DNA from: an uncultured candidatus Porisulfidus sp.
GTDB taxonomy: Bacteria > Pseudomonadota > Gammaproteobacteria > Poriferisulfidales > Oxydemutatoraceae
Assembly: GCA_965215125.1 (NCBI GenBank)
Contig: OZ244052.1
Span: 1,568,001 to 1,632,000, forward strand
Length of the DNA stretch: 64,000 nt
Reading direction: 5' to 3'
In this document: positions 57,793 to 60,081 of the stretch, in pieces
Layout: every line of letters starts with the position of its first letter
Position numbering within the stretch: position 1 is the first letter of the stretch
Notes under the pieces: generated by a model
What the model saw: only the letters and a program-made list of their open reading frames with translations
The model's database searches: none
Told to the model about the DNA's origin: nothing
Position numbers and translations under genes: made by a program

Positions 57793-59022
57793 ATGTCCGT
57801 AATAGTCCAGAAATTCGGCGGTACATCGGTTGCCTCCGTTGAATTGATAGAGCATGTTGCGACGATAGTCCATAATACCCAACGGCAGGGGCATCAAATC
57901 ATCGTTGTCGTGTCGGCAATGAGTGGCGAGACCGACCGCTTGATAGGATTGGCTCAAAAAGTGGATGCACATTATAGCGGTAGAGAACTCGATGCACTAT
58001 TGGCAACCGGCGAGCAAAGCAGTGCCGCGTTATTGGCAATCGCTTTGAACAAGCGGGGCGTTGAGGCAATATCCATGACCGGCTGGCAAGCCGGCATGAT
58101 GACCGATCAAAGCTGTAATAAGGCGCGTATTCGATCTATAGAGGAGGATAAGATCAAACATCGCTTGGAACAAGGAAAAGTTGTGGTCATCGCCGGCTTT
58201 CAAGGTATAGACGAACACGGCAATATTACTACGCTGGGGCGAGGCGGCTCGGATACCACTGCGGTCGCGGTTGCGGCAAAACTCAAGTGTGAAGAGTGTA
58301 GGATCTATACCGATGTAGACGGTATTTATACCACCGACCCGCGTATAGAACCTAAAGCTCGTCGCCTTGTCTCCATTACCTTTGAAGAAATGTTGGAAAT
58401 GGCAAGTTTAGGTTCAAAGATACTACAAATCCGCTCGGTAGAATTGGCAGGCAAGTATAATGTACCGGTTAGGGTGCTGTCTACTTTCAAAGAAGGTCAA
58501 GGCACGCTGATTAGCTATGAGGAAAATTCAATGGAAGAACTAAGAATTTCGGGTGTCGCTTGCAATCAAGACGAAGCACAGCTCACCGTGCGCGGTGTGC
58601 CGGATAGACCCGGCATTGCCGCGAGTATATTGGAGCCTATCGCAGAGACAAACATAGAAATAGATATGATTGTCCAAAATGTAGGCTCGCGCGACGGTAT
58701 TGCCGATTTCACGTTCACCGTACACCGTAGAGATTATCGCAAAGCAATGAAAATTCTCGAAACAACGGTTGAAAAGTTAGGTTCGGGACGAGTTATAGGT
58801 ACCGACAACATCGTCAAAGTTTCTCTAGTCGGTGTCGGCATGCGCTCACATGCCGGTATCGCCTCTAAAATGTTTAGTGCACTTGCCGAATCCGGCATAG
58901 ATATACGCATGATATCCACCTCGGAGATAAAAATCTCCATTGTTATAAAAGAAGAAATGATGCAAAAAGCCGTGCAGACCCTACATCGCGCTTTTGAGCT
59001 TGCTAACGCTAAGCACCCGTAA
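57793..59022 (+). CDS. lysC: Aspartate kinase
   Basis: VQKFGGTSV, TTLGRGGSDTTA, YTDVDG, ACT domains, ISTSEIKIS. Confidence 0.96.
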   Translation: MSVIVQKFGGTSVASVELIEHVATIVHNTQRQGHQIIVVVSAMSGETDRLIGLAQKVDAHYSGRELDALLATGEQSSAALLAIALNKRGVEAISMTGWQAGMMTDQSCNKARIRSIEEDKIKHRLEQGKVVVIAGFQGIDEHGNITTLGRGGSDTTAVAVAAKLKCEECRIYTDVDGIYTTDPRIEPKARRLVSITFEEMLEMASLGSKILQIRSVELAGKYNVPVRVLSTFKEGQGTLISYEENSMEELRISGVACNQDEAQLTVRGVPDRPGIAASILEPIAETNIEIDMIVQNVGSRDGIADFTFTVHRRDYRKAMKILETTVEKLGSGRVIGTDNIVKVSLVGVGMRSHAGIASKMFSALAESGIDIRMISTSEIKISIVIKEEMMQKAVQTLHRAFELANAKHP

Positions 59023-59103
59023 AAGCGGTAATTCCTCTTAAGGGAAGGCATGTCGGCCCTCCTTTACAGAGCGCGTGGTAGGCGTAAAAGAAATAAACTA
59101 ATA

Positions 59104-59691
59104 GGAAATTATATAGTTAACTTGACAAAGAAATGTTAAATTATATCAATGCAAACCCATAGAACAATTAGATACCATTTATATCCGGCGACACAGAAAA
59201 AACACCGGCAATTACATGGCACAGCAGGCGCATGCCGCTATGTCTGGAATCACTTTGTAGCTAAGTTGAAGGACGAATACGAGTATTACGGCGAAAGCCG
59301 GTTTAAATTCTTCACCCTAGGCAAGCAATTTACGACATTAAGAAAGTATTGCGACAAGTGGTTGCAAGTTTATTCCGCTTATATCGTCAAATCATCATTA
59401 CAACCGATAGAGATAGCATACAAAGGATTTTTCAAGGGCAACAACGTATTGCCGAAGTTTCACGGCAAATATACGCATAGCCCGTCATTCCCGATCAATT
59501 TTCAAGTGTCGGCATTGCGGACACGAGGACAATGCGGATGTAAATGCTGCATTAAACATTTTGGCGGCCGGGAGTACCGCAACCGGATGTGGAGACGGCG
59601 ACAGTGGCAACACAAGTCGGTCAATGAAGCGTCAAAAAGATAGGGTGGCAAGGCAGGCTAAAAAGTCTGCCAAGTTAACTATATAATTCCC
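59104..59691 (+). mobile_element. Non-autonomous TIR element carrying a deleted tnpB
   Basis: TIRs GGAAATTATATAGTTAACTTG (59104-59124) and CAAGTTAACTATATAATTCCC (59671-59691), 20/21 match; 8-bp direct repeat AACTAATA at 59096-59103 and 59692-59699. Confidence 0.88.
59149..59686 (+). pseudogene. tnpB: TnpB RNA-guided nuclease, internally deleted
   Basis: N-terminal HTH/REC (YHLYP...GACRYVWN...WL...AYKGFFK...PKF) joined out of frame near 59500 to FKCRHCGHEDNADVNAALNILA (end of Zn finger + RuvC-III); RuvC-I/II missing; TAA at 59684-59686. Confidence 0.88.
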
Positions 59692-59748
59692 AACTAATAT
59701 CAACACTTTAGTAGTGTTATATAATATGCCGACAGGAGGAATATTATT

Positions 59749-59967
59749 ATGTTAATTTTGACGAGAAGGATAGGAGAAACATTCAAAGTAGGAGATGACG
59801 TTAGTGTTACCGTTTTGGGAGTAAGAGGAAGTCAAATAAGAATTGGCATTTCCGCGCCTAGGGGTATAGATGTTTATCGTGAGGAGATTTACGATAAAAG
59901 GAAAAATGCCGTTAAGCAATCTGCCGAGAACGAAAAGAAAGCATCTGATGTTGTCGCCTCGCATTGA
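59749..59967 (+). CDS. csrA: Carbon storage regulator
   Basis: [31 protein letters not shown]....REEIY. Confidence 0.97.
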
Positions 59968-59988: not shown

Positions 59989-60081
59989 GGAGAGATGGCC
60001 GAGCGGCTGAAGGCGCTCCCCTGCTAAGGGAGTATGGGGTTTGTAGCTCCATCGAGGGTTCGAATCCCTCTCTCTCCGCCA
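59989..60081 (+). tRNA. tRNA-Ser(GCT)
   Basis: GGAGAGA/TCTCTCC acceptor stem, anticodon arm CTCCC-CTGCTAA-GGGAG, long variable arm, GGTTCGAATCC, encoded CCA. Confidence 0.97.

Follow-up and report, generated by a model that had tools for sequence, protein, structure and literature searches.

A broken tnpB cassette between lysC and csrA of an uncultured candidatus Porisulfidus is probably a non-autonomous member of an IS1595-family lineage

The DNA analyzed here is a 64,000-nucleotide stretch (the window) of contig OZ244052.1 (positions 1,568,001 to 1,632,000) from assembly GCA_965215125.1 of an uncultured candidatus Porisulfidus sp. Between the genes lysC and csrA it contains a 588-bp element whose only gene is a broken copy of tnpB, the gene for the RNA-guided nuclease TnpB. 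Very probably it is a dead, non-autonomous representative of an IS1595-family cut-and-paste lineage, with tnpB and its putative guide RNA (omega-RNA) as sole cargo. The case is built on the ends and target-site duplications of the element and its relatives, on IS1595 elements that share the same end subtypes, and on a predicted RNA scaffold that takes in the right end of the element. In what follows, G000 is the genome holding the window (2.22 Mb, one contig), other G numbers are related genomes, and L numbers are extracted loci.

A sequence-only reading of this DNA had described a 588-bp element with inverted ends agreeing at 20 of 21 positions and a perfect duplication of AACTAATA, inserted between lysC and csrA, and direct reading of the sequence confirmed this description. 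The left end begins as GGAAATTATATAGTTAACTTG at 59104 and the right end, whose reverse complement is GGGAATTATATAGTTAACTTG, finishes at 59691. These GG-starting repeats can be extended to 24 nt with two mismatches (22/24), and the window contains the end motif just two times, where shuffles predict 0.15 occurrences. The 8-bp duplication is perfect on both sides of the element, and the neighbors are indeed aspartokinase and CsrA.

The empty site with a single 8-mer, which the same reading had predicted, was found twice. In the same-genus genome G008 (locus L084), lysC and csrA are joined by ...GTAAAAGAAATA-ACCTAATA-TCAATG..., with the element absent and the 8-mer present once. In a co-occurring relative, represented by a 528-nt contig in three public DNA runs (depth 13.5, 25.2 and 4.6 vs ~140-460 for the main strain), position 59055 is joined to 59694 via 28 other letters; its empty site reads ...GAAATAAG-CTAATA-TCAAC..., again with the 8-mer in single copy. 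The window element is thus confirmed as a real insertion between lysC and csrA with 8 bp duplicated. The same-genus genomes G006 and G009 likewise do not have it, and because the duplication is perfect and the element is absent from three same-genus genomes, the insertion is younger than the split of these genomes.

Within the element, tnpB starts with the ATG at 59149, 45 bp in from the left end, and the C-terminal frame ends at a TAA (59684-59686) that falls within the right inverted repeat, both as read previously. The first 45 residues match the Pfam domain HTH_OrfB_IS605. A BLAST alignment to the most similar sibling splits into two segments, each 96% identical, with an overlap at window positions 59482-59514; the deletion between them takes out residues ~118-344 of the protein, which has 405 aa in the sibling, and shifts the frame. 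Lost with it are the RuvC-I aspartate, the RuvC-II glutamate and the first half of the zinc finger, leaving the window copy with an incomplete TnpB domain set. Judged from its sequence, this tnpB copy is dead, in agreement with the earlier conclusion that RuvC-I and RuvC-II are deleted.

The sequence-only reading had also supposed that intact siblings exist, and G000 supplies them. It holds seven copies with these ends, the window copy included, and all seven keep their ends. Five are full length (1,256-1,269 bp) with tnpB as the sole gene, and four of those five have an intact 405-aa frame. The window element is 96% identical to the full-length siblings G000:1725104-1726371 and G000:1291209-1292477, and three G000 copies are mutually 94-96% identical. 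Another sibling, G000:965778-967676, is internally deleted and split by a nested insertion sequence (IS) of another kind that encodes a 295-aa open reading frame (ORF) on the reverse strand and looks IS3-like by eye only. The cassette at G000:1278982-1280240 recurs in G008 as L019:3456-4714, with the same site, flanks and AATGAGTG duplication; since two genomes of the genus share it at the same site, this insertion is older than their split.

The intact sibling L002:1546-2763 encodes the full TnpB domain set, with the RuvC D-E-D triad and the zinc ribbon. It scores 199 bits against the NCBIfam model NF040570 (guided_TnpB), contains the Pfam domains OrfB_IS605 and TNB, and aligns end to end with ISDra2-type TnpB structures, which places the catalytic residues in VGLD (D), YMEGLN (E) and NADVNAALNI (D). 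Its scores lie below the NCBIfam cut-offs of both the IS200_TnpB and the IS607_TnpB models. Among cassette TnpBs, dN/dS was 0.06-0.18 in 8 of the 10 pairs with calculable (unsaturated) dS, values indicating that the intact proteins are under purifying selection.

The architecture extends well beyond this genome. A scan of the genome collection returned 31 related loci at 39-92% identity, all from uncultured Gammaproteobacteria (Ca. Oxydemutatoraceae, Ca. Porisulfidus, Thiotrichales), and the TnpB protein was present in 12 of 31 surveyed relatives. With the seven G000 copies added, 33 of 38 loci have GGGAATTATATA-type end pairs, 15 with perfect 8-bp duplications and 6 with duplications matching at 7/8; among the perfect ones is L019, the orthologue of G000:1278982. 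A further 32 loci contributed 24 with end pairs, 11 perfect duplications and 5 at 7/8. Pooled, and minus two duplicate loci, these are 55 distinct elements; the 8-bp duplication is perfect in 25 and matches at 7/8 in 11. Other copies of this tnpB therefore keep the ends and duplications, as the sequence-only reading required, with neither a Y1 nor a serine TnpA beside them. Across the 55 elements the architecture stays unchanged through at least 10 end subtypes, and the TnpB clade stays within GGGAATTATATA-type inverted ends with 8-bp duplications down to ~50% identity, plus one relative at 39%. These counts leave out three G035 paralogues (L127-L129, 39-40% identity), which have no inverted ends and are presumably conventional TnpBs, and the four distant or truncated matches that were all a metagenome scan gave. 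In most loci missed by the motif search the ends are decayed or variant; L032 and L123 show no ends, and L038 is cut by the end of its contig.

Elements encoding a DDE transposase share these ends, as had been anticipated, and they belong to the IS1595 family. The partner transposase passes the curated IS1595 models (186 bits for NF033547, 134 bits for PF12762). Genes of this type were found in only 1 of 14 control genomes, but in G000 (two identical copies) and in all five genomes first tested. An IS1595 transposase is present in 12 of 12 tnpB-positive relatives vs 9 of 19 tnpB-negative ones (Fisher p=0.002, a value overstated by the non-independence of relatives), and also in G003 and G004. 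DDE elements and cassettes have five end subtypes in common, with agreement of at least 22/24; in three cases both partners come from the same genome: (i) L057 of G006 agrees at 26/26 on one end with the left end of a sibling in G000, and shares its subtype with L025 of its own genome; (ii) L051, also of G006, agrees at 22/24 with L024, L026 and L036 of the same genome; (iii) L150 of G010 agrees at 24/26 with L098, L120 and L134 of the same genome; (iv) L151 of G015 agrees at 25/26 with L136; and (v) L152 of G031 agrees at 24-25/26 with L125 and L030.

The 8-bp duplication is perfect in 10 of the 13 complete DDE-bearing elements, and tnpB is absent from all 13. These elements carry the transposase alone (1.28-1.35 kb) or the transposase with passengers, which include an N6_N4 methyltransferase-HNH fusion (L054:1052-3434, where it is frameshifted, and L058), a PvuII-like endonuclease with a Mom-like protein (L049:17-2414), and orphan methyltransferases of 389-523 aa (L150, 2,616 bp; L151, 2,534 bp; L152, 3,055 bp). 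These passenger-bearing IS1595 "transporter" elements have GGGAATTATATA ends and perfect 8-bp duplications. The IS1595 family, as described by Siguier, Gagnevin and Chandler in 2009, reportedly includes such transporter IS with passenger genes, and we know of no listing of tnpB among its passengers. It is a prokaryotic relative of the eukaryotic Merlin, and we take the GG-start ends to resemble the consensus of its ISNwi1 subgroup.

Since tnpB is its only gene, the cassette is a non-autonomous derivative, and since no DDE-bearing element seen contains tnpB, its mobilization would take place in trans. The tnpB cassette is therefore a further passenger type of a passenger-carrying IS1595 lineage, always without a transposase. 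The sequence-only reading had proposed a TnpB captured by, and mobilized in trans by, a DDE transposase; the shared ends support this proposal, with the trans step one that we infer. Cassettes also look decayed in a genome that has lost its transposase: in G035, only IS1595 transposase fragments are left, and none of seven TIR-type copies (L097, L109, L119, L123-L126) has a perfect duplication; all seven show decayed ends or imperfect duplications, as if stranded. In G010, with one intact partner, 8 of 13 copies have perfect duplications. A second, smaller IS1595 group also occurs in many copies in the same genomes. Its elements are ~750 bp long with ends GGTACTTGACTAGTTTAGGG, unrelated to the cassette ends, and comprise L060, L062, L063 and ~15 more DDE matches with frames of 215-226 aa in G001/G008 and G002/G006.

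The right end of the cassette is also part of a predicted RNA scaffold. Past the RuvC-III codons, the DNA is kept at the nucleotide level even where the protein diverges. RNAalifold, applied to the last 200 nt plus 20 nt of flank of 20 elements, predicted 34 pairs, with 96% of cells paired vs 30-44% when the partners were slid. Double changes were seen at 13 pairs (58 cells) vs 2-5 pairs (3-11 cells) after sliding, and 0 of 500 shuffles attained the observed values on four of five pairing measures. Four covarying pairs lie in the nested stem. Upstream GATAG or GATAC pairs with the inner right repeat, which reads CTATA or GTATA; at pair 188:232, 9 sequences have C-G and 8 have G-C.

Every end subtype has its own long terminal hairpin, the 3' arm of which is the inner repeat. 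The right end folds more stably than the left end of the same element in 19 of 24 elements (Wilcoxon p=3e-4), and the right-end hairpin likewise exceeds the ends of DDE-only elements in stability (p=0.004). No Rfam family matches the scaffold at E up to 1. A structured RNA of the kind that TnpB uses, which would overlap the 3' end of tnpB and extend to the end of the element, is thus predicted computationally. Because conservation ends exactly at the last C of the element, the guide would begin with the duplicated 8 bp. In the window copy the scaffold is whole although the nuclease gene is destroyed, with a G-C replacing a G-U pair in the terminal hairpin. This copy could supply guide RNA to the TnpB of its 96%-identical siblings.

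Table 1. Positions of the element, its parts, its predicted RNA scaffold and the adjacent genes in the window.
Feature	Position	Strand	Basis or remark
Whole element, 588 bp; probable non-autonomous tnpB cassette with IS1595-type ends, shortened from ~1.26 kb by an internal deletion	59104..59691	+	
Left target-site duplication copy, 8 bp, AACTAATA	59096..59103	.	Read from sequence; single copy at empty sites
Left terminal inverted repeat (TIR), GGAAATTATATAGTTAACTTGACA	59104..59127	+	Same end on 7/7 G000 copies and on IS1595 element L057
Right TIR, reverse complement GGGAATTATATAGTTAACTTGGCA	59668..59691	-	
Right target-site duplication copy, 8 bp, AACTAATA	59692..59699	.	Read from sequence; would form the start of the guide (8 nt), provided that the scaffold stops at the edge of the element
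tnpB N-terminal remnant, about residues 1-117	59149..59499	+	HTH_OrfB_IS605 E=5e-9; open frame continues out of frame to 59643
Junction of the 680-bp deletion, which occurred between imperfect direct repeats CCCGATCAATT(A/T)TCAA	59490..59505	.	Two BLAST segments overlap here
tnpB C-terminal remnant, other frame: second half of zinc ribbon, RuvC-III NADVNAALNI, tail	59500..59686	+	Cas12f1-like_TNB E=2.8e-7
Predicted omega-RNA-like scaffold, intact in the dead copy	59532..59691	+	Covariation; no Rfam match
Scaffold helix	59532-59552		
Nested stem	59586-59602 with 59616-59633		Compensatory changes
Terminal hairpin	~59640-59682		3' arm is the inner right TIR
Helix 3	59570-59575 with 59686-59691		GGGAGU pairs with terminal AUUCCC
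lysC, aspartokinase (AA_kinase and ACT domains)	57793-59022		Flank of element
CsrA	59749-59967		Other flank of element
tRNA-Ser(GCU)	59989-60081		After csrA

The ends appear to be exchangeable. In the TnpB tree, close relatives within one genome bear different end subtypes. L039 and L040 are ~100% identical over long interior stretches and diverge within ~35-45 nt of each end, with the 3' break directly after ...CGTCAAACGG. From the position of this break, the repeat and the complementary RNA arm have therefore been exchanged together.

These observations suggest the following mechanism. An IS1595 transposase that recognizes the ends would mobilize the cassettes in trans. The omega-RNA would be transcribed through the 3' end of tnpB and read out into the flank, with the right inverted repeat serving it as last stem and as pseudoknot strand. 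The guide would start with the duplicated 8 bp and so match the empty site, and the nuclease, by analogy with IS605 and IS607 TnpB, may cut uninserted or excised alleles, favoring retention of the element. On encountering another resident IS1595, a cassette would have its ~40-nt end module (inverted repeat plus complementary RNA arm) replaced. The G000 copies would be either cross-mobilized or by now stranded, because no exactly cognate transposase remains (21/27 at best). Taken to its full extent, this makes the tnpB/omega-RNA cassette a hyperparasite of IS1595 that never travels with a transposase, swaps its ~40-nt end module, takes its guide from the duplicated 8 bp and cuts the uninserted allele. 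We put this forward tentatively, as a possibility with less than an even chance of being right. If true, it would amount to a homing drive for a non-autonomous DDE element and would explain why cassettes outnumber their autonomous partners.

A targeting signal was looked for in the insertion flanks. On the tnpB-upstream side, the base adjoining the duplication at its 5' edge is a purine at 34 of 35 sites (20/20, then 14/15 independent sites; base 59095 in the window), and no mirror pyrimidine signal was seen on the opposite flank among cassette sites. The asymmetry of this purine is unexplained by a transposase acting on near-symmetrical ends. A reading of the purine as a target-adjacent motif (TAM) was rejected, since a transposase preference fits at least as well: DDE-only elements have it at 8 of 10 sites. 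A T at -2, present at 13 of 20 sites initially, was not replicated (5/15).

Several points weigh against the mechanism, some of them against its transposition half. The resident IS1595 of G000 (L016; 1,294 bp, duplication TCATTTTT, ends GGGA(C/A)(T/C)TATAGCGATTAGTTGACAAA) fits the window type at only 21/27 positions, ungapped, so that G000 has no exactly cognate transposase, and an autonomous element of the exact window end subtype is missing from both G000 and G008. The only exact-subtype partner seen, L057 in G006, may be decayed itself, as its frame is short (275 aa) and its flanks are mismatched (3/8). The trees of the 25 TnpBs and the 9 transposases, with few matched taxa, show no clear congruence. 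Other points concern the RNA. Helix 3 (GGGAAU with AUUCCC, ~115-135 nt apart) is invariant and so draws no support from covariation, and the upstream-shuffle control of the terminal hairpin was non-discriminating, which is why the left-end and DDE-end controls were used instead. As for targeting, the flank purine gives no specific support to TnpB, being shared with DDE-only elements, and a homing role needs a TAM inside the variable left flank. Mobilization in trans, expression of the omega-RNA and the position of the guide are all things we infer from the sequences.

Three other explanations for these elements were weighed. The one that survives best is that they are fossils, once moved by an IS1595 transposase and now immobile here, in which TnpB and omega-RNA play no role in spread and are passengers or serve a host function. 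The lack of an exactly cognate transposase in G000 would fit, as would several G000 copies with duplications at 7/8 or worse and the G000:1278982 insertion, which has identical flanks in G008 and predates the split. We nevertheless consider the fossil explanation unlikely, given the perfectly duplicated window insertion that three same-genus genomes do not have, the near-identity of three G000 copies, the purifying selection on TnpB (the low dN/dS above) and the excess of cassettes over autonomous elements, for example 13 to 1 in G010.

A second explanation is that a tnpB with its own IS605 or IS607 ends landed by accident in an older IS1595-derived miniature inverted-repeat transposable element (MITE). 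MITEs derived from IS families are common, and the split G000 copy (G000:965778-967676) does hold a nested IS of another kind. No cargo-less pair of these ends was found in G000, the genome searched for MITEs: 7 of 7 end pairs enclose tnpB, with one weak solo match. The space ahead of the ATG is just 45 bp, and the stop codon of the ORF already lies in the right inverted repeat. The inner right repeat pairs with upstream RNA through compensatory changes and is swapped together with its complementary arm, and the architecture is constant in 55 elements with their many end subtypes. The sequence-only reading had seen little room for a nested IS605 element; with the right repeat lying within a covarying scaffold that overlaps the end of tnpB, we judge nesting very improbable.

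A third explanation is an ordinary tnpB-only element of the IS200/IS605 (IS1341-type) or IS607 family, served by a Y1 or serine TnpA elsewhere, with the ends and duplication coincidental. The protein is a typical ISDra2-like TnpB, and IS1341-group solo tnpB elements are common according to a 2026 review (PMC13565253). By the same account, the IS200/IS605 and IS607 families have neither duplications nor inverted ends. IS1341-type elements resemble the cassettes in their ~1.3-kb size, in carrying tnpB only and in being present in multiple copies per genome. They have asymmetric hairpin ends, no inverted repeats and no duplications, and depend on a Y1 TnpA, none of which applies here. Y1_Tnp is absent from G000, G008, G010, G012 and G035, and G006 has one weak partial match distant from any tnpB. 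Serine recombinase (Resolvase domain) is absent in all five genomes searched, the control search being positive in 12 of 14 reference genomes. The cassettes thus have inverted ends and duplications with no Y1 TnpA, which sets them apart from IS200/IS605, and duplications with no serine TnpA, which sets them apart from IS607. With 25 of 55 duplications perfect, a single 8-mer at the empty site and a protein below the cut-offs of both family models, coincidence is scarcely credible.

Against the IS1595 family itself, the cassette compares well: inverted ends, 8-bp target duplications (a trait of the family; PMC10045372, in the part seen) and passenger genes are shared, as are the terminal repeats of elements whose transposases pass the curated models. 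Unlike those elements, the cassette has no transposase of its own. The general design, a solo tnpB on DDE-type ends, has been in the literature since 2023 for other DDE families, and our element is a new and well-documented example of it; the novelty of a bacterial parallel to Fanzor capture was to that extent overestimated in the sequence-only reading. As far as its consulted text goes, that study (Altae-Tran et al. 2023, PNAS, PMC10691335) describes six DDE-associated TnpB branches, DDE-1 to DDE-6, all with inverted terminal repeats. In it, the 3' end of tnpB lies <250 bp from the element end, and solo tnpBs share ends with transposase-bearing elements, implying mobilization in trans. The cassettes resemble these branches in having tnpB within inverted terminal repeats and solo copies that share ends with DDE elements. 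They differ in that a DDE gene encoded together with tnpB is what defines the published branches, whereas here tnpB and transposase never occur in one element (0/13).

The DDE families named are IS630 in the main text of PMC10691335 and ISL2, IS630 and IS1031 in PMC13565253. IS1595 is named neither in that main text, whose supplements may list such a branch, nor in the available portion of the review, and literature searches judged by titles and abstract openings returned no paper linking TnpB with IS1595. We have not seen described the matched end subtypes, the repeat built into the RNA scaffold or the modular end replacement. The Fanzor1 and Fanzor2* elements (Yoon et al. 2023, NAR, PMC10711439, as far as consulted) are similar in that a TnpB-family nuclease is the sole gene of a non-autonomous element with TIRs and target-site duplications. 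Unlike Fanzor, the cassette is bacterial and encodes a canonical 405-aa TnpB with a canonical RuvC, and its 8-bp duplication is variable; being only 8 bp and variable, the duplication is unlikely to be scaffold. The consulted part of the same paper describes a -130/-3 pseudoknot in IS607 TnpB RNAs, and helix 3 here has the same geometry.

The review PMC13565253 discusses of what use TnpB might be to a transposon whose excision involves double-strand breaks and whose insertion duplicates the target. If the preferred reading is right, with the cassette a non-autonomous member of an IS1595 lineage, IS1595 would join the DDE families that carry TnpB. In annotation, these elements should not be labeled IS200/IS605. 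The lineage offers a compact natural system for studying the role of TnpB: intact cassettes are numerous, candidate transposases have matching ends, the empty sites are defined, and the predicted RNA scaffold includes the transposase-binding end. It suggests that a transposase recognition sequence and a guide-RNA scaffold can be the same DNA and can be exchanged together.

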